Part shown: one piece after another, positions 5,790 to 16,792 of the stretch
How positions within the stretch are numbered: position 1 is the first letter of the stretch
Layout: the number at the start of each line of letters is the position of its first letter
Assembly (NCBI RefSeq): GCF_016903815.1
Contig: NZ_CP069973.1
Strand: one strand, 5' to 3'
DNA length: 64,000 nucleotides
From: Escherichia coli
Lineage (GTDB): Bacteria; Pseudomonadota; Gammaproteobacteria; Enterobacterales; Enterobacteriaceae
Notes under the pieces: generated by a model
The model's database searches: none
What the model was told of the DNA's origin: nothing
Seen by the model: only the letters and a program-made list of their open reading frames with translations
Translations under genes and position numbers: made by a program

Positions 5790-6452
5790 ATGGAACTTTT
5801 GACCCAATTGCTGCAAGCCCTGTGGGCGCAGGATTTTGAAACCCTGGCCAATCCGTCGATGATTGGCATGTTGTATTTTGTCTTGTTTGTAATTTTGTTC
5901 CTTGAAAACGGCTTGCTTCCGGCGGCCTTTTTACCGGGCGACAGTTTACTGGTGTTGGTCGGCGTATTGATTGCGAAAGGCGCGATGGGCTATCCGCAAA
6001 CGATTCTGCTGCTGACCGTTGCCGCCAGCCTCGGTTGCTGGGTCAGCTATATTCAGGGGCGATGGCTGGGCAATACCCGCACAGTACAAAACTGGCTATC
6101 TCATTTACCCGCGCATTATCATCAACGCGCACACCATCTTTTTCATAAACACGGTTTATCGGCGCTGTTAATTGGTCGCTTTATTGCATTTGTCAGAACA
6201 CTACTGCCGACGATTGCCGGATTATCAGGGCTGAATAACGCGCGCTTTCAGTTCTTCAACTGGATGAGCGGTCTGCTGTGGGTATTGATCCTGACAACTC
6301 TGGGTTACATGCTCGGCAAAACGCCGGTATTTTTAAAGTACGAGGACCAGCTGATGTCATGCCTGATGCTGCTCCCGGTGGTGCTGCTGGTGTTTGGCCT
6401 GGCAGGTTCTCTGGTCGTGTTATGGAAAAAGAAATATGGAAATCGGGGGTAA
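5790..6452 (+). CDS. yqjA: DedA-family inner membrane protein
   Basis: 220-aa hydrophobic [25 protein letters not shown]... recognised as YqjA. Confidence 0.9.
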
Positions 6453-6455
6453 GGG

Positions 6456-6839
6456 ATGCAAATACCTCGCATGTCGCTTCGCCAGCTAGCCTGGTCCGGC
6501 GCTGTTTTACTTCTGGTCGGCACACTGTTGCTGGCCTGGTCCGCGGTTCGCCAGCAAGAGTCTACGCTGGCGATTCGTGCCGTTCATCAAGGGACAACGA
6601 TGCCAGACGGTTTTTCAATCTGGCATCACCTTGACGCTCACGGCATTCCTTTCAAAAGTATCACCCCCAAAAATGACACTCTGTTAATTACCTTTGACTC
6701 CAGCGACCAGAGTGCCGCCGCAAAAGCGGTCCTCGACAGAACATTGCCCCATGGCTACATCATCGCGCAGCAGGACAATAATAGTCAGGCTATGCAGTGG
6801 CTGACCCGGTTGCGGGATAACTCTCATCGCTTCGGATAA
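6456..6839 (+). CDS. mzrA: modulator of EnvZ/OmpR two-component system
   Basis: 127-aa [25 protein letters not shown]... recognised as MzrA (YqjB); 3-bp spacing to yqjA. Confidence 0.88.
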
Positions 6840-6985
6840 CTTCCTGTTATCCGAAACATATCACTGACTTTGGTGATTTCACCGTAACTGTCTATGATTA
6901 ATGAGGCGGTGGTTAACACTACCGCTTCGTTGTCTGGACAATCGTTCCTTTGTAATAGGTCCGAATCACAATGGAAGGTTCAAGA

Positions 6986-7354
6986 ATGAAATACCGCATC
7001 GCTTTAGCTGTTTCTCTCTTTGCTCTTAGTGCCGGTAGTTATGCCACTACCCTGTGTCAGGAAAAGGAGCAAAATATCCTTAAGGAGATCAGCTATGCCG
7101 AAAAACACCAAAACCAGAATCGTATTGACGGTCTGAATAAAGCCCTGAGTGAAGTCCGGGCCAACTGTTCAGATAGCCAGCTGCGTGCCGATCATCAGAA
7201 GAAAATCGCAAAGCAGAAAGATGAGGTGGCGGAACGCCAGCAAGATTTAACCGAGGCGAAGCAAAAAGGCGATGCCGATAAGATTGCCAAACGCGAACGG
7301 AAACTGGCAGAAGCGCAGGAAGAGCTGAAAAAGCTGGAAGCGCGCGACTACTAA
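6986..7354 (+). CDS. yqjC: DUF1090 periplasmic coiled-coil protein
   Basis: ORF 6971..7354; signal peptide MKYRIALAVSLFALSAGSYA then charged coiled-coil; matches YqjC (122 aa). Confidence 0.85.
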   Translation: MKYRIALAVSLFALSAGSYATTLCQEKEQNILKEISYAEKHQNQNRIDGLNKALSEVRANCSDSQLRADHQKKIAKQKDEVAERQQDLTEAKQKGDADKIAKRERKLAEAQEELKKLEARDY

Positions 7355-7391
7355 CTCACAATAGTCACTACTTACTCACCTGGAGAAAACT

Positions 7392-7697
7392 ATGTCGAAA
7401 GAACACACTACGGAACATCTGCGTGCTGAGTTGAAATCCCTTTCCGATACGCTGGAAGAGGTGCTTAGCTCATCTGGCGAGAAGTCGAAAGAAGAGTTGA
7501 GTAAGATTCGTAGCAAAGCGGAGCAGGCACTGAAACAGAGCCGTTATCGCCTGGGTGAAACCGGTGATGCCATCGCCAAACAAACCCGTGTCGCGGCGGC
7601 GCGTGCCGATGAGTATGTGCGTGAAAATCCATGGACGGGCGTGGGCATTGGCGCTGCAATCGGTGTAGTGCTCGGCGTTCTGCTATCGCGTCGTTAA
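7392..7697 (+). CDS. yqjD: membrane-anchored ribosome-binding protein (ElaB/YgaM/YqjD family)
   Basis: 101-aa ORF MSKEHTTEHLRAELKSLSDTLEEV... with C-terminal TM helix; recognised as YqjD. Confidence 0.9.
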   Translation: MSKEHTTEHLRAELKSLSDTLEEVLSSSGEKSKEELSKIRSKAEQALKQSRYRLGETGDAIAKQTRVAAARADEYVRENPWTGVGIGAAIGVVLGVLLSRR

Positions 7698-7699
7698 TT

Positions 7700-8104
7700 A
7701 TGGCGGACACTCATCACGCGCAAGGGCCCGGTAAAAGCGTTCTGGGCATCGGGCAGCGAATTGTTTCCATCATGGTTGAAATGGTGGAAACACGTCTGCG
7801 GCTGGCGGTGGTGGAGCTGGAAGAGGAAAAAGCGAATCTCTTTCAACTTTTACTGATGCTGGGCCTGACGATGCTTTTCGCTGCATTTGGTCTTATGAGC
7901 CTGATGGTGCTGATTATTTGGGCGGTTGATCCGCAATATCGCCTGAATGCGATGATTGCCACCACCGTGGTGTTGCTGCTACTGGCACTGATTGGCGGTA
8001 TCTGGACGTTACGTAAATCGCGTAAATCCACCTTGCTGCGCCATACACGCCATGAGCTGGCAAACGATCGGCAGCTGCTCGAGGAGGAGTCCCGTGAGCA
8101 GTAA
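7700..8104 (+). CDS. yqjE: inner membrane protein (DUF1469)
   Basis: ORF 7631..8104; MADTHHAQGPGKSVLGIGQRIV... (134 aa) from ATG at 7700, 2 nt after yqjD stop. Confidence 0.85.
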   Translation: MADTHHAQGPGKSVLGIGQRIVSIMVEMVETRLRLAVVELEEEKANLFQLLLMLGLTMLFAAFGLMSLMVLIIWAVDPQYRLNAMIATTVVLLLLALIGGIWTLRKSRKSTLLRHTRHELANDRQLLEEESREQ

Positions 8105-8393
8105 AGTCGAACGTGAACGACGTAAGGCGCAACTGCTTAGCCAGATCCAGCAACAACGGCTGGATCTTTCTGCCAGTCGTCGTGAATGGCTGGAGGCAAC
8201 AGGCGCTTACGATCGTCGCTGGAATATGCTGCTAAGTCTGCGCTCCTGGGCGCTGGTTGGCAGTAGCGTGATGGCGATCTGGACGATTCGCCATCCTAAT
8301 ATGCTGGTCCGCTGGGCCAGACGCGGTTTTGGCTTATGGAGCGCCTGGCGTCTGGTTAAAACGACCCTCAAGCAGCAACAGCTTCGCGGTTAA
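8094..8393 (+). CDS. yqjK: small membrane protein YqjK
   Basis: ORF 7992..8393; 99-aa product from GTG at 8094 (VSSKVERERRKAQLLSQIQQ...) overlapping yqjE end by 11 nt. Confidence 0.75.
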   Translation: MSSKVERERRKAQLLSQIQQQRLDLSASRREWLEATGAYDRRWNMLLSLRSWALVGSSVMAIWTIRHPNMLVRWARRGFGLWSAWRLVKTTLKQQQLRG

Positions 8394-8576
8394 TAACCTC
8401 TCTGGCCGGAGCCATTCCGGCCTTATCCCTCAAATTTTTTGAAGATTTTTGACAGTTTTCCTTGCTAACAATCATCATTCACCACGTTTATGATTCTCTC
8501 CATCGACAGCAACGACGCTAATACCGCGCCCTTGCACAAAAAAACAATCAGCAGCCTGAGTGGCGCAGTGGAGAGT

Positions 8577-8972
8577 ATGATGAAAAAATTAGAAGATGTT
8601 GGTGTACTGGTAGCGCGCATTTTAATGCCGATTCTGTTTATTACCGCAGGCTGGGGAAAAATTACTGGCTACGCGGGTACCCAACAATATATGGAAGCGA
8701 TGGGTGTCCCAGGCTTTATGCTGCCGCTGGTGATTCTGCTTGAGTTTGGTGGTGGTCTGGCAATCCTGTTCGGTTTCCTGACTCGCACCACAGCCCTGTT
8801 TACTGCGGGCTTTACGCTGCTGACGGCATTTTTATTTCACAGCAACTTTGCTGAAGGCGTCAACTCGCTGATGTTCATGAAAAACCTGACAATTTCTGGC
8901 GGATTCCTGCTGCTGGCAATTACCGGTCCGGGCGCGTATAGCATCGACCGCCTGCTGAATAAAAAGTGGTAA
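8577..8972 (+). CDS. yqjF: DoxX-family inner membrane protein
   Basis: ORF 8490..8972; MMKKLEDVGVLVARILMPILF... recognised as YqjF; start may be 8580. Confidence 0.85.
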   Translation: MMKKLEDVGVLVARILMPILFITAGWGKITGYAGTQQYMEAMGVPGFMLPLVILLEFGGGLAILFGFLTRTTALFTAGFTLLTAFLFHSNFAEGVNSLMFMKNLTISGGFLLLAITGPGAYSIDRLLNKKW

Positions 8973-9041
8973 GCACGCGCTATACTTAACGATAAAAAAC
9001 GAGGAGGAAGCTCCTCGTTTTTGCTATTGGAGGAGAGAAAT

Positions 9042-10028
9042 ATGGGTCAACTGATTGACGGCGTCTGGCATGACACCTGGTACGATACCAAATCTACCGG
9101 CGGTAAATTTCAACGTTCAGCTTCCGCATTTCGTAACTGGCTCACTGCCGATGGCGCGCCAGGCCCCACTGGCACAGGCGGTTTTATCGCAGAGAAAGAT
9201 CGTTATCATCTCTATGTTTCACTCGCCTGCCCGTGGGCGCACCGCACGCTGATCATGCGTAAACTCAAAGGACTGGAACCGTTTATTTCCGTTTCCGTAG
9301 TGAACCCGCTGATGCTGGAAAACGGCTGGACCTTTGATGACAGTTTTCCGGGTGCAACCGGCGATACACTCTATCAACATGAATTTCTGTATCAGCTTTA
9401 TCTCCACGCCGATCCACACTACAGCGGACGAGTTACTGTTCCCGTACTCTGGGACAAAAAGAACCACACCATCGTCAGCAACGAATCAGCGGAAATCATC
9501 CGCATGTTCAATACCGCGTTTGATGCGCTGGGCGCGAAAGCGGGTGATTACTACCCACCAGCCCTGCAAACGAAAATTGACGAACTTAACGGCTGGATTT
9601 ATGACACCGTTAACAATGGCGTGTATAAAGCCGGTTTTGCCACCAGCCAGCAAGCCTACGACGAGGCGGTAGTGAAAGTGTTTGAATCGCTGGCGCGACT
9701 GGAGCAGATTTTAGGCCAGCATCGTTACCTGACCGGCAACCAGCTAACCGAAGCCGATATTCGCCTGTGGACCACGCTGGTGCGTTTTGATCCGGTGTAT
9801 GTCACCCACTTCAAGTGTGATAAGCACCGCATCAGCGATTACCTGAATCTGTATGGCTTCCTGCGCGATATCTACCAGATGCCGGGGATCGCCGAAACAG
9901 TCAATTTCGATCACATCCGTAATCACTACTTCCGCAGCCATAAGACCATCAACCCTACGGGGATTATTTCAATTGGTCCGTGGCAGGATCTCGATGAACC
10001 GCATGGTCGAGATGTTCGCTTCGGTTAA
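9042..10028 (+). CDS. yqjG: glutathionyl-hydroquinone reductase (Xi-class GST)
   Basis: ORF 9021..10028; MGQLIDGVWHDTWYDTKSTGG... (328 aa), CPWAHR motif; recognised as YqjG. Confidence 0.9.
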   Translation: MGQLIDGVWHDTWYDTKSTGGKFQRSASAFRNWLTADGAPGPTGTGGFIAEKDRYHLYVSLACPWAHRTLIMRKLKGLEPFISVSVVNPLMLENGWTFDDSFPGATGDTLYQHEFLYQLYLHADPHYSGRVTVPVLWDKKNHTIVSNESAEIIRMFNTAFDALGAKAGDYYPPALQTKIDELNGWIYDTVNNGVYKAGFATSQQAYDEAVVKVFESLARLEQILGQHRYLTGNQLTEADIRLWTTLVRFDPVYVTHFKCDKHRISDYLNLYGFLRDIYQMPGIAETVNFDHIRNHYFRSHKTINPTGIISIGPWQDLDEPHGRDVRFG

Positions 10029-10033
10029 AAAAA

Positions 10034-10051
10034 GGCACCTTACGAGGTGCC
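10034..10051 (+). terminator. putative terminator hairpin after yqjG
   Basis: ggcacct-tacg-aggtgcc perfect hairpin preceded by A-run, just after yqjG stop; T-run weak on plus strand. Confidence 0.4.
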
Positions 10052-10079
10052 TCTGATAATTAGCTAAGTGCATGTTGTT

Positions 10080-10185
10080 CATGTCGGATGCGGCGTGAAC
10101 GCCTTATTAAACCCACAAAACGTTTATATTCAATATGTTACAATGACCGCGTAGGCCAGATAAGCGTAGCGCATCTGGCGATTTT
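10080..10185. repeat. REP-like palindromic elements (degenerate)
   Basis: tgtcggatgcggcgtgaacgcctta and gtaggccagataagcgtagcgcatctggcg resemble REP consensus. Confidence 0.5.
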
Positions 10186-10346
10186 GCGCTTGCCCTTATC
10201 CTTCACAGCGCCTTATTAATTCATCGCGATAATATTTACTGCCATTTCATTCACGTCTATTCTTAATTTGCTGCTTTAAAAACAAGTGATTGAGCAAAAT
10301 TGAGGCAAAAATGGACTGGTATCTGAAAGTACTAAAAAATTATGTC

Positions 10347-10354
10347 GGTTTCCG
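10347..10354. repeat. IS1 target-site duplication, left copy (ggtttccg)
   Basis: Identical 8-mer flanks both IS1 ends; a 9th base is ambiguous. Confidence 0.8.
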
Positions 10355-10409
10355 GGTAATGCTGCCAACTTACTGATTTAGTGTATGATGGTGATTTTAA
10401 GGTGCTTGC

Positions 10410-10685
10410 GTGGCTTCCATTTCCATCAGATGTCCTTCCTGCTCCGCTACTGAAGGCGTGGTGCGTAACGGCAAAAGCACTGCCGGACATCAGCGCTATC
10501 TCTGCTCTCATTGCCGTAAAACATGGCAACTACAGTTCACTTACACCGCCTCTCAGCCCGGTACGCACCAGAAAATCATTGATATGGCCATGAATGGCGT
10601 CGGATGTCGCGCCAGTGCACGCATTATGGGCGTTGGCCTCAACACGGTTTTACGTCACTTAAAAAACTCAGGCCGCAGTCGGTAA
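10410..10685 (+). CDS. insA: IS1 InsA (DNA-binding repressor)
   Basis: 91-aa [40 protein letters not shown]... zinc-finger protein of IS1. Confidence 0.93.
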
Positions 10686-11107
10686 CCTCGCGCATACAAC
10701 CGGGCAGTGATGTGATTGTCTGCGCTGAAATGGACGAACAGTGGGGCTACGTCGGTGCTAAATCACGTCAGCGCTGGCTGTTTTACGCGTATGACAGGAT
10801 ACGGAGGACGGTTGTGGCGCACGTCTTCGGTGAACGCACTCTGGCCACACTGGAGCGTCTTCTGAGCCTGCTGTCGGCCTTTGAGGTCGTGGTATGGATG
10901 ACGGATGGCTGGCCGCTGTATGAATCACGCCTGAAGGGAAAGCTGCACGTTATCAGCAAGCGTTACACTCAGCGCATTGAGCGACATAATCTGAATCTGA
11001 GACAACATCTGGCAAGGCTGGGACGGAAGTCACTGTCGTTCTCAAAATCGGTGGAGCTGCATGACAAGGTCATCGGGCATTATCTGAACATAAAACACTA
11101 TCAGTAA
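10604..11107 (+). CDS. insB: IS1 InsB frame (transposase catalytic part, expressed as InsAB' fusion)
   Basis: 167-aa ORF in -1 frame relative to insA; ...[32 protein letters not shown]... Confidence 0.9.
10652..10658 (+). other. IS1 programmed -1 ribosomal frameshift motif (A6C)
   Basis: ttAAAAAACtc near the 3' end of insA where the insB frame overlaps; known site producing InsAB' transposase. Confidence 0.8.
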
Positions 11108-11122
11108 GTTGGAGTCATTACC

Positions 11123-11130
11123 GGTTTCCG
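11123..11130. repeat. IS1 target-site duplication, right copy (ggtttccg)
   Basis: Matches 10347-10354. Confidence 0.8.
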
Positions 11131-11464
11131 GGGTCGTGCGCGGCGCAAAGAGTACTGGATGTTTATTCTGGTCAACATCATCTTTACGTTCGTGCTGGGG
11201 CTACTGGATAAAATGTTAGGCTGGCAACGTGCCGGTGGCGAAGGCATCCTGACGACAATCTACGGTATTCTGGTGTTTTTACCATGGTGGGCAGTTCAGT
11301 TCCGCCGCCTGCACGACACCGACCGCTCGGCGTGGTGGGCACTGCTATTCTTAATCCCGTTTATCGGCTGGCTTATTATCATCGTCTTTAACTGCCAGGC
11401 GGGTACGCCAGGCGAAAACCGCTTTGGACCTGATCCAAAACTGGAACCTTAAAACAAATCTACT

Positions 11465-11494
11465 CGCCGGATGTCTGACTCATCCGGCTTTTAT
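11465..11494 (+). terminator. intrinsic terminator after yhaH
   Basis: gccggatg-tctgactc-atccggc hairpin followed by ttttatc. Confidence 0.7.
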
Positions 11495-11693
11495 CATTAT
11501 GTTGATGAATGAATAATTTACTAATGTTTATTTAAAATATTTCAATGTCGTTATATAAATTACATATAAAAAATAACCATGTATTTATCTTAAATATCAA
11601 AACCTTTATAACATCCGAAAAAGAAAGATACGAATAGCATTTACACAATACCCGGAATAAACTTTCGTCACTTTTAATTAAAGGGATGTTTTT

Positions 11694-12050
11694 ATGCAGT
11701 GGTATTTATCCGTATTAAAAAATTATGTTGGTTTCTCTGGTCGCGCACGTCGTAAAGAGTACTGGATGTTTACTCTGATTAACGCCATCGTCGGCGCTAT
11801 TATCAATGTCATTCAATTGATTTTAGGTTTAGAGTTTCCGTTCCTTTCTCTCATTTACCTGGCAGCAACAATCATTCCGGTCATTGCTCTGTGCGTTCGT
11901 CGTCTGCATGATACTGACCGTTCAGGTGCGTGGGCGCTTCTCTATCTGGTACCGATCATTGGCTGGTTAGTTCTGTTTGTATTTGCCTGTTTAGAGGGCA
12001 ATTCTGGCAGCAATCGTTACGGAAACGATCCGAAGTTTGGTTCAAATTAA
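11694..12050 (+). CDS. yhaI: DUF805 inner membrane protein (paralog of yhaH)
   Basis: 118-aa ORF MQWYLSVLKNYVGFSGRARRKEYWMF...RRLHDTDRSGAWALL; shares N-terminal and RRLHDTDRS motifs with yhaH. Confidence 0.9.
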   Translation: MQWYLSVLKNYVGFSGRARRKEYWMFTLINAIVGAIINVIQLILGLEFPFLSLIYLAATIIPVIALCVRRLHDTDRSGAWALLYLVPIIGWLVLFVFACLEGNSGSNRYGNDPKFGSN

Positions 12051-12056
12051 TCTTAA

Positions 12057-12086
12057 AATTGGGGCGATATTTCGCCCCTTTTTATT
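12057..12086 (+). terminator. intrinsic terminator after yhaI
   Basis: ggggcgatatttcgcccc hairpin followed by tttttatt. Confidence 0.75.
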
Positions 12087-12100
12087 AACAATAACAAATA

Positions 12101-12997
12101 TTATTTTCCGCTAAAAAGTTTGGGAATTTCCCGCAGACACCAGGATTTCGCTTCCCCCATACTGTCACGACGCCAGGCCATAATAATATCGATCTCGCTA
12201 GTCGATTCTGGGCTGACGACACGCAACCGCCCTTCCGCGATATCTTTTTCGACCATCGGATACGGCATCGTCGCCACGCCAAGCCCCGCCAGTAATGCCT
12301 GACGTTTATCTTCAATCGTGCTCACCGTTAAACGCGGCTGTTTGTCCAGTAGCTGTACGGTCAATACCGGGCGCTCACGAGCGGTATCCGCCACCGCAAT
12401 TCCACGATATTTCACGCGCGTCACTTCAGATAACGGTTCCGGCTCCTGATGAATCGGGTGATCAGGCGCGGCAACGTAGACGTTCATTAACGTATAGAGC
12501 TTGCGCGAGTTGATCTCCGACGAGGAACGAAAATGCATATCCGGCGCGATAACGATATCCGCCCGCCCCTGCTCCAGTCGTTCCCACGCCCCCGCCAGCA
12601 CTTCGGTGATGATTGCCAGTTGGGTATTGGCTTTTGCCGCCAGTTTGTCAATTAACGGGAAAAAGGCAGGTGTCGGTACCAGCGCTTCGGTCACAATGGT
12701 GAGATGCGTTTCCCAACCGCGCGCGAGAGCTTCCGCATCGGTAGTCAGTTTATCTGCGGCTTCCAGCAAAACGCGCCCTCGCTCCAGCAACATCCTCCCG
12801 ACATTGGTGAATTTGGTGCGATGGCCCGAGCGGTCAAACAGCACCACATCAAGCTCTTCTTCCAGTTTTTGCATGGTGTAGCTAAGTGCGGAAGGCACGC
12901 GTCCCAGCTCATCCGCCGCCGCCGCAAAACTGCCCCGGCGATCGATCGCATCCATAACCCGTAGTGCTTCCAGCGTTAATGCCCTTTCTTTGGCCAT
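12101..12997 (-). CDS. yhaJ: LysR-family transcriptional regulator
   Basis: 298-aa ORF MAKERALTLEALRVMDAIDRRGSFAAAADELGRVPSALSYTMQKLEEEL... HTH plus LysR substrate domain. Confidence 0.92.
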   Translation of the reverse strand: MAKERALTLEALRVMDAIDRRGSFAAAADELGRVPSALSYTMQKLEEELDVVLFDRSGHRTKFTNVGRMLLERGRVLLEAADKLTTDAEALARGWETHLTIVTEALVPTPAFFPLIDKLAAKANTQLAIITEVLAGAWERLEQGRADIVIAPDMHFRSSSEINSRKLYTLMNVYVAAPDHPIHQEPEPLSEVTRVKYRGIAVADTARERPVLTVQLLDKQPRLTVSTIEDKRQALLAGLGVATMPYPMVEKDIAEGRLRVVSPESTSEIDIIMAWRRDSMGEAKSWCLREIPKLFSGK

Positions 12998-13101
12998 TTC
13001 GTTCTCATTCAGGAAATTTGAACATACCGGGCAGAATATCTGGCTAACAATGTAGCGTCCAGCCCCTTACCATAAAAGGAAGTAAAGAGAGGTCAAGAAT
13101 T

Positions 13102-13803
13102 ATGATTACTACCCGAACTGCCAGGCAGTGTGGACAAGCAGACTACGGATGGTTGCAGGCCCGGTATACTTTTTCCTTTGGACACTACTTCGACCCGAAA
13201 TTGTTAGGCTATGCCTCCCTGCGCGTGCTTAACCAGGAAGTGCTGGCCCCAGGTGCCGCCTTTCAGCCGCGAACCTATCCCAAAGTCGATATTTTAAATG
13301 TGATTCTGGATGGAGAAGCTGAGTATCGCGACAGCGAAGGCAATCATGTTCAGACCAGCACTGGTGAGGTGTTGCTGCTCTCTACCCAGCCGGGTGTCAG
13401 CTATAGCGAACACAATCTCAGCAAAGACAAACCGTTAACGCGAATGCAGCTTTGGCTGGATGCCTGCCCACAACGAGAGAATCCGCTGATTCAAAAACTG
13501 GCGCTTAATATGAGCAAGCAGCAATTAATCGCCTCGCCAGAAGGTGGGATGGGAAGCCTGCAATTGCGCCAGCAAGTGTGGCTGCACCATATCGTGCTCG
13601 ACAAAGGCGAAAGTGCGAATTTCCAGTTGCATGGGCCACGCGCGTATTTGCAATCGATTCACGGGAAATTTCATGCGCTTACGCATTATGAAGAGAAAGC
13701 GGCGCTGACCTGCGGTGATGGGGCGTTTATTCGTGACGAGGCTAACATTACGCTGGTTGCCGATTCCCCACTGCGCGCTTTGCTGATAGATTTGCCTGTC
13801 TAG
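13102..13803 (+). CDS. yhaK: pirin-like bicupin protein
   Basis: 233-aa ORF MITTRTARQCGQADYGWLQARYTFSFGHYFDPK... recognised as YhaK. Confidence 0.9.
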   Translation: MITTRTARQCGQADYGWLQARYTFSFGHYFDPKLLGYASLRVLNQEVLAPGAAFQPRTYPKVDILNVILDGEAEYRDSEGNHVQTSTGEVLLLSTQPGVSYSEHNLSKDKPLTRMQLWLDACPQRENPLIQKLALNMSKQQLIASPEGGMGSLQLRQQVWLHHIVLDKGESANFQLHGPRAYLQSIHGKFHALTHYEEKAALTCGDGAFIRDEANITLVADSPLRALLIDLPV

Positions 13804-13825
13804 TTGTTTTTACAGGGAGATGATG

Positions 13826-13990
13826 ATGAGTAAAAAATCGGCCAAAAAGCGTCAGCCAGTGAAGCCCGTGGTGGCGAAAGAACCTGCTCGCACCGCCAAT
13901 AATTTTGGCTATGAAGAGATGTTGAGCGAGCTGGAAGCCATCGTCGCGGATGCTGAAACGCGTTTAGCCGAGGATGAAGCTACCGCGTAA
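13826..13990 (+). CDS. yhaL: small protein YhaL (about 54 aa)
   Basis: Short ORF below track threshold: MSKKSAKKRQPVKPVVAKEPARTANNFGYEEMLSELEAIVADAETRLAEDEATA; triple ATG at 13820-13828 makes exact start uncertain. Confidence 0.6.
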   Translation: MSKKSAKKRQPVKPVVAKEPARTANNFGYEEMLSELEAIVADAETRLAEDEATA

Positions 13991-14112
<122 letters not shown>

Positions 14113-14122
14113 AACCTGGCGT

Positions 14123-15433
14123 TTATCTGGCCTTGCTCGCCATAATCTCGATAATCTGCCGATCCGTTTGCTGCATCGAATGGCTTGCTAACGCACACAG
14201 GTTGGCAATCGACTGCTCAACATCATGCGCCACAATCCCTTCATTGCCGGTCACTGCGGTATCATCCAGCGCCATTAACACCGCTTTCCACGCAGCCGAA
14301 GCACTGGTCGAAACCTTCATCGCGCAGCTGTTCGACGCTCCATCGCAAATCATGCCGCTGACATCGCCGATCATACTGCTGATCGCCATCGAAATGGTTT
14401 CATAACGCCCATCCACCAGCCATGCCATCCCGGCGGCGGCCCCCATTGCTGCGGTCGTTGCGGCACAAAGCGCAGACAAACGCGGTAACTGGTTATGGAT
14501 GTAAATCGCGCTCAAATGCGAAAGCATCAGCGCACGCGCCAGCCGTTCATCATCGGCCCCGAAGTGTTCTGCTACCACCACCACAGGCATTGTTGCAGTG
14601 ATCCCCTGGTTACCCGAGCCTGAATTACTCATCGCCGGAAGCGTAGCACCGCCCATACGCGCATCGGATGCCGCGCTGGTACGAATCACAATGGATGAAG
14701 AGAGATCTTTCGCCAGCAAACCGCGCGCGCACTGTTTTTCCAGCGTCGCACCAATATGCAGCCCCCAGTTACCGCTCAAACCTTCCTGCGATAACGCACA
14801 ATTTAACTTCGCAGAATCGAGAATAAAGCGGATCGCCGCAAACGGGACTTCATTGACGAACTTCAGGATCTCAGCCAGCGTCGTCCTGGAAAGCACCGTC
14901 AGCGGCGACTCTTGCTCGCCCTCTGTCACACACGCCTGCTGGGTAAACACCACACCATTGTGCGTCTCAATATGCACAATGTTGGTATGCCCGCCGACAA
15001 TGGTGACACACGCCCACTTCTCACCGTTCCAGACTTTGGCGCGTGAGAAGAGGATTTCATCGCAAGGTTCCTGGATCTTAACTGAGACTTTCCCCGCCGC
15101 CAGCAGTGCTTTGGCATCGGCAATTGCCTGCGCAGTTGCATCTTTCAGCACTTCCAGCCCGGCGTTAGCATTTCCACCTAACGCTCCCAGCGCCGCCGCA
15201 ATCGGCAGCCCCACCATTCCCGTGCCGGGAACGGTGACGCCCAGACCGTTCTTCATCAGATTTGGCGAAACCCAGGCTTCTACACGTTCAACCGGACCTT
15301 CCAGTTCTGCCGCAGCAACCGCCGCCGCCAGCGCCAGTGAAATCGGTTCAGTACACCCCAGCGCCGGTTTTACCTCCTCCTGAACGGCGAGGATGTAACG
15401 CTGCCATAACGGATTTAAAGTCGAATCAAACAT
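14123..15433 (-). CDS. cyuA: L-cysteine desulfidase
   Basis: 436-aa [45 protein letters not shown]... recognised as YhaM/CyuA. Confidence 0.9.
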
Positions 15434-15460
15434 ATTAAAAACCTTAAAATTTCAGGTAAA

Positions 15461-16792
15461 TCAAGAAAATGCCAGGAACGGAGAAACACAAAGCAACAAA
15501 CCAGTGACGATAATCAGGTACAGAGACATCCCTTTGTATTTGTGCAATGCCGGTACTTTGTAAACCAGCCACGCCGGGATCAGGCACCCTACCATGCCGA
15601 AAATCGGGCTACAGATAGAGGTGAAGCTCAACACCGGGGCGTTCAGTACGATGGCGCTCCAGGCCAGCAAAATGGCGAAAATCATGATGCCGCGCTGAAC
15701 GAGATTTTCGTTAATCTTCTCGGCAGGTATCTTGCGACGCAGGATGTTCATTACGATCCCTTGCGTTGCTTCGCGAAAGCCTAAATAGACGCCAAAGAAT
15801 GCAGTCATGACAGCAAAGATATTGAGAATGACGCTGACCACTTTCACCCACGCTGCGCCGTCACCGCTAATAAACTGTGCGGCAATCGCCAACGCGGAAA
15901 TATTCTGCTCGTAGGCTTTTACCGCTTCGTCATGTCCCATCGCCAGCGTGAACGACACGGCGTAGAAAAAGACGGTGACAAACAAAATGCCAAACGCGAT
16001 ATTCATTGCCCGCAATGCTTTATGCCGCGCCACTTCAATTGATTTTTCCCGCGAGCGATAAGAGATCACCATCGGGCTTAACGTCTGGATAAACAGAATC
16101 GACGTCAGGGTAAACGGCAGCGTAATAATGGCGTTTTTCACCAGCAGCCCCAGCGGCGGTAGCGAACCGACGTTATACAGATGCCACATTCCCACCATCG
16201 ACACGCCCAGCGCCGCGACCACCAGCAGCTTGGTCAGCACCATGCCGGTCGAAATTTTAAATAACAATTTCTCGCCGCGTGAGGAGATCGCCACCAGAAT
16301 GCAAATCAGTACCAGACCATAAAAGGGACTGTCTGACAGCAACCCTTCCGTCACGCCGAAGGTATGCAGGTAGGAAGCACTATCGTTGGTGATGGCGGTG
16401 GAATAGACGAACATCCAAATCACCAGCATTACGAAATAGAGCGCACCTAACAGGATGCCCCAGTTTTTACCTAAATAACCGCTAATGACACTCGGGTAAT
16501 CTTTACATTCTGGTGATTCTGCCAGCGTATTAATAAACAATCGCTGAAACAGATACATTGCCGGGTAACCAATCACCGATGAGAGCAAAAATACCCACAA
16601 TCCCATCAAACCGACCTGCACCGGGAGAAAAACAATCCCCGCGCCAATCGCCATCCCGATACTCATAATCACCCAGCCGGTGTCAGTACTGTCGAATTTG
16701 ATCGCTTCTCGCCACTCGCTCTCACTCATTCCAGCACGACCCGCCGGGGTCGAAGCGTCTGCAATGACGCCTTTATTCGATGCAATTTCCAT
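15461..16792 (-). CDS. cyuP: cysteine/serine transporter (HAAAP family)
   Basis: 443-aa polytopic ORF MEIASNKGVIADASTPAGRAGMSESEWREAIKFDSTDTGWVIMSIGMAIGAG... recognised as YhaO/CyuP; 27-bp spacing to cyuA. Confidence 0.9.
   Translation of the reverse strand: MEIASNKGVIADASTPAGRAGMSESEWREAIKFDSTDTGWVIMSIGMAIGAGIVFLPVQVGLMGLWVFLLSSVIGYPAMYLFQRLFINTLAESPECKDYPSVISGYLGKNWGILLGALYFVMLVIWMFVYSTAITNDSASYLHTFGVTEGLLSDSPFYGLVLICILVAISSRGEKLLFKISTGMVLTKLLVVAALGVSMVGMWHLYNVGSLPPLGLLVKNAIITLPFTLTSILFIQTLSPMVISYRSREKSIEVARHKALRAMNIAFGILFVTVFFYAVSFTLAMGHDEAVKAYEQNISALAIAAQFISGDGAAWVKVVSVILNIFAVMTAFFGVYLGFREATQGIVMNILRRKIPAEKINENLVQRGIMIFAILLAWSAIVLNAPVLSFTSICSPIFGMVGCLIPAWLVYKVPALHKYKGMSLYLIIVTGLLLCVSPFLAFS

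Follow-up and report, generated by a model that had tools for sequence, protein, structure and literature searches.

Gene Content of the yhaJ Locus

The 64,000-nucleotide stretch of an Escherichia coli genome considered here (contig NZ_CP069973.1 of assembly GCF_016903815.1, hereafter the window) contains yhaJ, the gene of a LysR-type regulator, close to two genes that it is known to activate, yqjF and yhaK. The gene order is yqjF, yqjG, yhaH, yhaI, yhaJ, yhaK, and yhaL, with yhaH interrupted by an IS1 element and yhaJ on the minus strand, and the whole spans about 5.3 kb. This locus is very probably the intact chromosomal core of the known YhaJ regulon of E. coli, to which an unrelated, lineage-specific IS1 has been added inside yhaH. 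Over 7500-15000, the sequence matches E. coli strain 7/2 at 100% identity, as it does many further isolates from clinical sources, and at least 80% of this region is found in 5377 of the 5426 complete E. coli genomes. Gene coordinates come from the Prokaryotic Genome Annotation Pipeline (PGAP) annotation of strain 7/2, transferred to the window, and from the list of open reading frames (ORFs).

8580-8972, plus strand: yqjF, DoxX-family membrane protein of 130 amino acids (aa), identical to that of K-12.
9042-10028, plus strand: yqjG, predicted glutathionyl-hydroquinone reductase (Xi-class glutathione S-transferase, GST), 328 aa, three substitutions relative to K-12.
11694-12050, plus strand: yhaI-type DUF805 gene, 58 of 357 nt differing from K-12.
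12101-12997, minus strand: yhaJ, LysR-type regulator, 298 aa, N296S being the sole substitution relative to K-12.
13102-13803, plus strand: yhaK, pirin-like bicupin, 233 aa, six substitutions relative to K-12.
13826-13990, plus strand: yhaL, 54 aa, without a Pfam family.

An earlier note, drawn from the sequence alone, had named yqjF-yqjG, yhaJ, and yhaK-yhaL in this order, and annotation, Pfam, and structure matches agree that all of them are present. YhaJ has the LysR-type layout, with an N-terminal winged helix-turn-helix (PF00126, HTH_1, residues 9-68, E = 4.9e-17) and a C-terminal substrate-binding domain (PF03466, LysR_substrate, residues 94-288, E = 2.1e-19). It is the ortholog of the experimentally studied YhaJ of E. 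coli (K-12 b3105), and PGAP also names it yhaJ. The other Pfam matches are DoxX in YqjF, GST_N_2 and GST_C_2 in YqjG, DUF805 twice, Pirin and Pirin_C_2 in YhaK, and InsA and DDE_Tnp_IS1 in the IS1 element. Solved E. coli structures match YhaJ (8h58, 8h5a, and 9irz), YhaK (2vec), and YqjG (3r3e and 4g0i), with E values from 1e-52 to 1e-232. The match of YqjG to 3r3e and 4g0i (E = 1.6e-232) makes it a Xi-class GST and predicted glutathionyl-hydroquinone reductase, near-identical to the YqjG of E. coli, whose structure and enzymology have been characterized. A homolog of yhaL goes undetected in many of the other genera compared, and cyuA and cyuP come after this gene. A scan of 6000-16000 against Rfam matched no family.

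YhaJ Boxes Upstream of yqjF and yhaK

Deletion of yhaJ abolishes the DNT (dinitrotoluene)- or hydroquinone-induced expression of yqjF, yhaK, ybiJ, yhhW, ygiD, and yceP, and purified YhaJ gel-shifts all six promoter fragments (Palevsky et al. 2016, PMC5031710). The same work describes a 16-nt motif with TCA-N7-TGA symmetry that is common to YhaJ promoters and in which point mutations lead to the loss of induction, and it reports that a yhaK deletion mutant builds up inducer (PMC5031710). Chromatin immunoprecipitation followed by sequencing (ChIP-seq) places YhaJ at yhaJ/yhaK and at yqjF in enterohemorrhagic and uropathogenic E. coli (EHEC and UPEC; Connolly et al. 2019, PMC6765310), and enrichment in ChIP-PCR (polymerase chain reaction) was found in four strains (Connolly et al. 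2020, PMC7315121). The direct inducer of YhaJ is reported to be 2,4,5-trihydroxytoluene (PMC7888469), and the effector domain was crystallized with methylhydroquinone (PMC10562874). The view, stated in the earlier note, that YhaJ activates yqjF and yhaK is thus backed by published induction, gel shift, box mutagenesis, and ChIP-seq (PMC5031710, PMC6765310), and it is also correct that explosives biosensors use the yqjF promoter as their sensing element. YhaJ binding and YhaJ-dependent induction have been demonstrated in K-12, EHEC, and UPEC with the same sequences, and are predicted for the strain of the window.

8430-8445, plus strand: YhaJ box of the yqjF promoter, TCAAATTTTTTGAAGA, with the TCA-N7-TGA dyad and T-N11-A.
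13009-13024, plus strand: YhaJ box between yhaJ and yhaK, TCAGGAAATTTGAACA, at a distance of 12 nt from the start codon of yhaJ.
8404-8422, plus strand: hairpin after yqjK (fold of -15 kcal/mol), ending 8 nt before the YhaJ box and not conserved across species.

The published YhaJ operators are present and intact in the window. The yqjF box has the sequence quoted in PMC11739112, and the yqjF mutations C146T and T138C/T137C of PMC5031710 map onto positions 8431 and 8439-8440 in it. Likewise, the yhaK mutations C92T and T84C/T83C of the same study map onto 13010 and 13018-13019, within the box whose T-N11-A dyad, TCAGGAAATTTGA, occupies 13009-13021 in the 104-bp gap between the divergent yhaJ (minus strand) and yhaK (plus strand). 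From the yqjK hairpin to the ATG, the upstream region of yqjF differs from that of K-12 by a single-nucleotide polymorphism (SNP; 8531), located downstream of the promoter, and between yhaJ and yhaK the window and K-12 have the same sequence (100% identity). The hairpin at 8404-8422 probably terminates transcription of yqjCDEK, the genes upstream.

A T-N11-A motif shared by the two promoters, which had been proposed as a check of common regulation, is indeed present at both, but it does not discriminate on its own: it is expected at about 1 position in 16, and even the stricter TCA-N7-TGAA occurs at the level of chance. The joint occurrence is more telling, as arithmetic from the window chance rate gives p of about 4e-4 for a hit in both intergenic regions (186 and 104 bp). 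The promoters of yqjF and yhaK were then compared in register, by a gapless alignment of 43 bp anchored at the first T of the box. They share 10 of the 16 nt of the published motif and 17 of the next 27, among them the 9-mer GCTAACAAT. Of 127,948 positions in the window, only 8 resemble the yqjF segment to this extent, and the segment and the yhaK site are two of these.

Conservation was analyzed at 80 loci of Enterobacteriaceae, obtained from a scan for YhaJ keeping one genome per species; 76 species were compared for yqjF. The yqjF box is kept in all 76 species, while nearby positions vary freely. The yhaK box is found in all 80, where its fifth base varies (mostly G, some T) and the eighth is also changed in one species. 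Part of this conservation of boxes and promoters follows from limited divergence, because YhaJ is at least 92% identical in all the species compared. Both the extended register-locked similarity and the cross-species invariance of the boxes are well above chance. The neighborhood is kept as well, with yqjF adjoining yhaJ in 76 of the 80 loci and yhaK divergent from yhaJ in all 80.

The third-best match of the window to a weight matrix of the YhaJ box, TCATTTTTTTTGACAA (26024-26039, minus strand, 15.5 bits), falls between tdcA and tdcR, some 190 nt ahead of tdcA. Either TdcA, also a LysR-type protein, or YhaJ could bind there; the 2020 ChIP study has "tdcE" among the YhaJ regions.

Putative Promoter Architecture of yqjF and yhaK

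LysR activators have a standard layout, seen in BenM and CbnR, made of a recognition site and an activation site. For the YhaJ promoter, the recognition and activation binding sites (RBS and ABS) are still unassigned according to a 2025 paper (PMC11739112). The comparison across species points to the following elements.

8451-8472, plus strand: invariant block of the yqjF promoter, GACAGTTTTCCTTGCTAACAAT, containing the putative -35 CTAACA (8465-8470) and the 9-mer GCTAACAAT.
8489-8494, plus strand: putative -10 hexamer of yqjF, TATGAT, from which transcription is predicted to start near 8501-8502; the second-ranked consensus match.
13030-13051, plus strand: invariant block of the yhaK promoter, GGCAGAATATCTGGCTAACAAT, containing the dyad CAG-N5-CTG and the putative -35 CTAACA (13044-13049).
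13068-13073, plus strand: putative -10 hexamer of yhaK, TACCAT, from which transcription is predicted to start near 13080.
13096-13069, minus strand: candidate yhaJ promoter by consensus match, -35 TTGACC at 13096-13091 and -10 TATGGT at 13074-13069.

We infer that in both promoters the box is the recognition site, centered at about -65, and that the activation site is the invariant block, which covers about -51 to -30 and overlaps with the weak -35 CTAACA. In yhaK, this block includes a perfect CAG-N5-CTG dyad centered near -43. Such a layout would correspond to the canonical geometry of a LysR tetramer. Upstream of yqjF, 71 of 76 species keep the hexamer CTAACA; upstream of yhaK, all 80 do. 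In yqjF it precedes TATGAT by 18 nt, and the -10 varies across the 76 species (TATGAT, TAATAT, TACACT, TATTAT, TACTAT, and others) while always fitting TA..(A/C)T. The same elements stand in the same register in yhaK, with a spacer of 18 nt and a -10 that is TACCAT or TAACAT across species. Beyond these two genes, the promoters of yqjF, yhaK, ybiJ, and yhhW have TCAnnnnnTTTGAAnAnnnnnGnCA in common; in K-12 ybiJ and yhhW too, the first T of the box is followed 21 nt later by G-N-CA, and each of the four has a -10-like hexamer at index 60-66 from the box. The ygiD promoter was left out of this comparison, as its only exact TCA-N7-TGA is at -76, versus a published -50, and the annotated start has since been revised.

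In the divergent region, the putative yhaK -10 and the candidate yhaJ -10 overlap face to face (13068-13074). This is consistent with a published scheme, where the region is drawn with overlapping yhaJ and yhaK promoters (PMC7315121).

The earlier note had taken 8490, the first ATG of the long ORF, as the left edge of yqjF. Annotation of this locus and of K-12 puts the start at 8580, where GGAG precedes it. The promoter model puts TATGAT at 8489-8494, and hence the ATG at 8490 lies inside the putative -10 hexamer. A 160-aa form of YqjF starting at this ATG was rejected, as in-frame stops occur within 90 nt in 36 of the 76 species, and an ATG is found at the position only in species with the -10 hexamer TATGAT or TATGCT.

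The 9-mer GCTAACAAT occurs at 8464-8472 and 13043-13051, in the same register relative to the box, and is nearly invariant in the 76-80 species. It is conserved beyond the needs of a -35 hexamer and is absent from the promoters of ybiJ and yhhW; it may be a further YhaJ half-site or the site of another factor. We give about even weight to the idea that yqjF and yhaK each carry a copy of the same 70-bp YhaJ-responsive promoter cassette, fixed across Enterobacteriaceae. Such a cassette would comprise the box (at -65), an activation site between about -51 and -37, GCTAACAAT over the -35, a spacer of 18 bp, and a TA..AT -10.

The Spacer between yqjF and yqjG

The 69-bp spacer that separates yqjF from yqjG contains two elements.

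8981-8986, plus strand: -10-like TATACT, candidate promoter of yqjG, nine nt after the yqjF stop codon.
8995-9022, plus strand: A-tract, GC-rich hairpin, and U-tract, terminator-like.

The hairpin (centroid of -20 kcal/mol, z = -3.3) is found in every species examined, and 4 of its 10 consensus pairs show compensatory changes. At the TATACT position, 66 of the 76 species have TATACT, 6 TATAAT, 1 TATATT, and 1 TACACT. Because of these two conserved elements, yqjF is best regarded as its own transcription unit and yqjG as probably a separate one: the yqjF unit looks as if it ends, at least partly, at the hairpin, and yqjG probably has its own promoter.

This bears on the suggestion, made in the earlier note, of one quinone and hydroquinone detoxification module. 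In its strong form, YhaJ would drive yqjF-yqjG as a single transcript, as well as yhaK-yhaL, and the whole would be a co-regulated system. There is something to be said for this: the adjacency of yqjF and yqjG and their place beside yhaJ are kept in about 74-76 of the 80 species of Enterobacteriaceae, the predicted activity of YqjG, assigned by identity to 3r3e/4g0i, fits the quinol effectors of YhaJ, and read-through is plausible across so short a spacer with a hairpin whose U-tract is short (4-5 U). Yet the conserved A-tract, hairpin, and U-tract stand between the two genes, the conserved TATACT follows the yqjF stop codon, and the motif search of the window gives no YhaJ box near yqjG. Moreover, yqjG is absent from PMC5031710 and from the text and supplement of Connolly 2019 on YhaJ-dependent genes, and no paper mentioning yqjF and yqjG together was found in the literature searched. 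Hence neither an upstream box nor co-transcription with yqjF places yqjG in the YhaJ regulon, with read-through as the route by which it might still be reached. The single co-regulated system is therefore doubtful, and its yqjF-yqjG part is not supported as one unit. A functional link of YqjG to the quinol-sensing YhaJ is plausible from synteny and chemistry; co-regulation of yqjG by YhaJ is undocumented in the literature searched.

The arrangement of the spacer is itself odd, as the start site of the TATACT promoter would fall at the foot of the terminator-like hairpin. This could set a fixed ratio of yqjF to yqjG or give the yqjG mRNA a stabilizing 5′ stem. In several species or lineages (L003, L006, L007, L021, L040, and L052), the spacer is expanded to 120-260 bp, and the hairpin occurs there in a second copy in two of them, E. 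albertii (L003) and Escherichia sp. E1V33 (L006).

The IS1 Element in yhaH

The region between yqjG and yhaJ contains the insertion and three hairpins.

10311-10354, plus strand: 5′ fragment of yhaH, from codon 1 through the second base of codon 15, closing with the left copy of the 8-nt GGTTTCCG.
10355-11122, plus strand: complete IS1, 768 bp, with 23-nt terminal inverted repeats.
10410-11107, plus strand: inside IS1, insA at 10410-10685, the A6C frameshift motif at 10661-10667, and the insB frame to 11107.
11123-11452, plus strand: 3′ part of yhaH (DUF805), of which the first 8 nt are the right copy of GGTTTCCG.
10033-10052, no strand assigned: hairpin after yqjG whose T-run belongs to the minus strand (A7 at 10026-10032), an orientation suited to ending leftward transcription.
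11466-11488, no strand assigned: hairpin to the right of IS1, standing between IS1 and the 3′ end of yhaJ.
12061-12078, no strand assigned: hairpin between the convergent yhaI and yhaJ, followed by a T-run, terminator-like (z = -4.7).

The element belongs to the IS1 family by its size, inverted repeats, insA/insB' frameshift, and target duplication, and PGAP labels 10410-11107 as "IS1 family transposase, programmed frameshift". The 8-bp target duplication GGTTTCCG is found at 10347-10354 and 11123-11130, and the in silico removal of IS1 and of one repeat restores a YhaH of 121 aa, identical to that of K-12. The element does lie between yhaJ and yqjF, as had been noticed, but it is not intergenic: it interrupts codon 15 of yhaH, whose ATG is at 10311. 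PGAP also annotates a yhaH-remnant ORF (11117-11452, 111 aa) with an ATT start inside the right end of IS1, which is an annotation artifact of the insertion. The exact yhaH::IS1 junction is present in 91 of the 5426 complete E. coli genomes (1.7%) and is therefore a lineage marker.

Downstream of the yqjF promoter, about 1.85 kb separate it from IS1, which lies 326 nt past the yqjG stop and about 1.9 kb from the yhaJ/yhaK promoters. The proposal that IS1 could alter local transcription is not supported for the regulon, with the element inside yhaH, far from the promoters, and hairpins on both sides. Its sole demonstrable effect is the loss of an intact yhaH, which codes for a DUF805 membrane protein and has no YhaJ box. 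The hairpin next to yqjG (10026-10052 with its tract) has a T-run on the minus strand only and looks like a leftward terminator rather than one that would serve yqjG. Past this hairpin, at about 10080-10215, the spacer varies with respect to K-12 and includes indels.

Weighing of the Evidence

Together with the published work, these observations suggest the following scheme. As the literature shows, YhaJ binds a TCA-N7-TGA box both ahead of yqjF and between yhaJ and yhaK, and it activates yqjF and yhaK in response to hydroxylated aromatics (2,4,5-trihydroxytoluene derived from DNT or trinitrotoluene (TNT), methylhydroquinone, and hydroquinone). From the box at about -65, bound YhaJ would reach an activation site over the weak CTAACA, itself separated by an 18-bp spacer from TATGAT or TACCAT. 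The complex at yhaJ-yhaK would sit in the leader of the divergent yhaJ transcript and so would allow autoregulation, which has been suggested only (PMC8882911). The yqjF gene would form its own unit, with yqjG as a conserved neighbor that probably uses its own promoter, and IS1 most likely leaves the YhaJ-controlled promoters unaffected.

Several points weigh against reading the locus as an intact regulon core that IS1 leaves alone. The TCA-N7-TGAA pattern is at chance in the window (10 observed versus 9.68 expected); given this frequency, a bare search for it was rejected as stand-alone evidence and replaced by the register-locked comparison and conservation. The narrow range of YhaJ divergence among the species compared, given above, is another. 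The top sigma-70 match upstream of yqjF is TTGACA-18-CATCAT (8449-8478), which would put the box at about -50; it was discarded as the YhaJ-dependent promoter, because CATCAT is unconserved in the 76 species whereas TATGAT keeps the -10 consensus positions. The published tables consulted (Cappable-seq and the Romero 2014 supplements) gave no mapped start site for yqjF or yhaK, and the YhaJ response of the strain of the window is predicted from its sequence. Finally, a leftward hybrid promoter-like site spans 10368-10339, where TTGGCA in the left end of IS1 and CATAAT in yhaH give a match of 10 out of 12.

This last point belongs to the explanation in which transcription leaving IS1, from the element or from hybrid promoters, changes yhaI, yhaJ (by antisense), or yqjG, and hence the YhaJ response of the lineage. 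The ends of IS1 reportedly create hybrid promoters, and the element shares its orientation with the yhaH remnant. We nevertheless consider this explanation quite improbable, and an effect by read-through or by a hybrid outward promoter unlikely. Leftward transcripts would meet the hairpin with the minus-strand 7-T run (10052-10026) ahead of the yqjG coding sequence, and rightward ones could run antisense to yhaJ only after crossing two hairpins, at 11466-11488 and 12061-12078. The two YhaJ-dependent promoters lie at a distance of 1.85-1.9 kb and have the sequence found in K-12, and the frequency of the junction, 91 of 5426, is consistent with a neutral lineage marker. The idea that the shared motif is a chance likeness of two AT-rich intergenic regions in a coincidental gene neighborhood has a negligible probability: the frequencies of TCA-N7-TGAA and of T-N11-A would allow it, but the joint occurrence in both regions and the 43-bp register-locked similarity are very unlikely by chance, the boxes are invariant in 76-80 species amid varying neighbors, and it was already refuted by published box mutations that abolish induction (PMC5031710) and by ChIP-seq peaks on both sites (PMC6765310).

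Comparison with Known Systems

The intact regulon core thus retained as the reading of the locus can be set beside K-12, with which the window shares genes, order, strands, boxes, and the yhaJ-yhaK intergenic sequence (PMC5031710, PMC6765310, PMC7315121). It differs from K-12 by yhaH::IS1, by carrying the other common class of yhaI, by the six substitutions in YhaK and three in YqjG, and by the SNP in the yqjF leader.

The divergent arrangement of regulator and target and the aromatic effector are shared with BenM/benA, CbnR/cbnA, CatR/catBC, DntR, and NahR. The putative promoter layout also resembles that of BenM/CbnR-type promoters, with a T-N11-A dyad at about -65 and a second region that would reach a weak -35. 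Unlike the classical LysR activators of aromatic metabolism, one YhaJ controls at least six scattered promoters (PMC5031710).

Insertions of IS1 produce target duplications of 8-9 bp and can form hybrid outward promoters. The present one is similar in its 768 bp, 23-nt repeats, A6C frameshift, 8-bp duplication, and outward -35-like TTGGCA in the left end. It is unlike promoter-activating IS1 insertions in that the element is inside a small DUF805 gene, with no neighbor placed for activation.

The yhaI gene shows a distinct pattern of variation. Its product differs from that of K-12 at 17 of 118 aa, and the nucleotide differences cluster at about 11830-12001, with few scattered differences in the flanks. 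Two classes of yhaI exist in E. coli, one of the window type (at least 95% identity, in about 2290 genomes) and one of the K-12 type, about 84% identical to the window; the gene is missing from about 1065 complete E. coli genomes. Gene conversion from yhaH was rejected as the origin of the patch, which is no closer to yhaH and is just part of one of two common allele classes. Most other Enterobacteriaceae have a single DUF805 gene at the yhaH/yhaI position, and some have none.

Implications

The regulator, its targets, the operator, the effectors, and the structure are already published, and in this respect the locus tells nothing new about the biology. What is added are corrected coordinates, the true target of IS1, a putative promoter map, and caution on the membership of yqjG in the YhaJ regulon. 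The predicted map of RBS, ABS, -35, -10, and start can be tested on the yqjF biosensor promoter, which has so far been optimized mostly by random mutagenesis. The link from the quinol response of YhaJ to YqjG is attractive, though undocumented in the literature searched, and the spacer argues against a simple operon.

If yqjF and yhaK do carry copies of one promoter cassette, this would supply the assignment of RBS and ABS, and the start sites, that were said to be missing in 2025. It would also mean that YhaJ induces yqjF alone, with yqjG behind a terminator-like hairpin and under its own promoter, so that the conserved synteny of these genes across Enterobacteriaceae would not mean a single operon.

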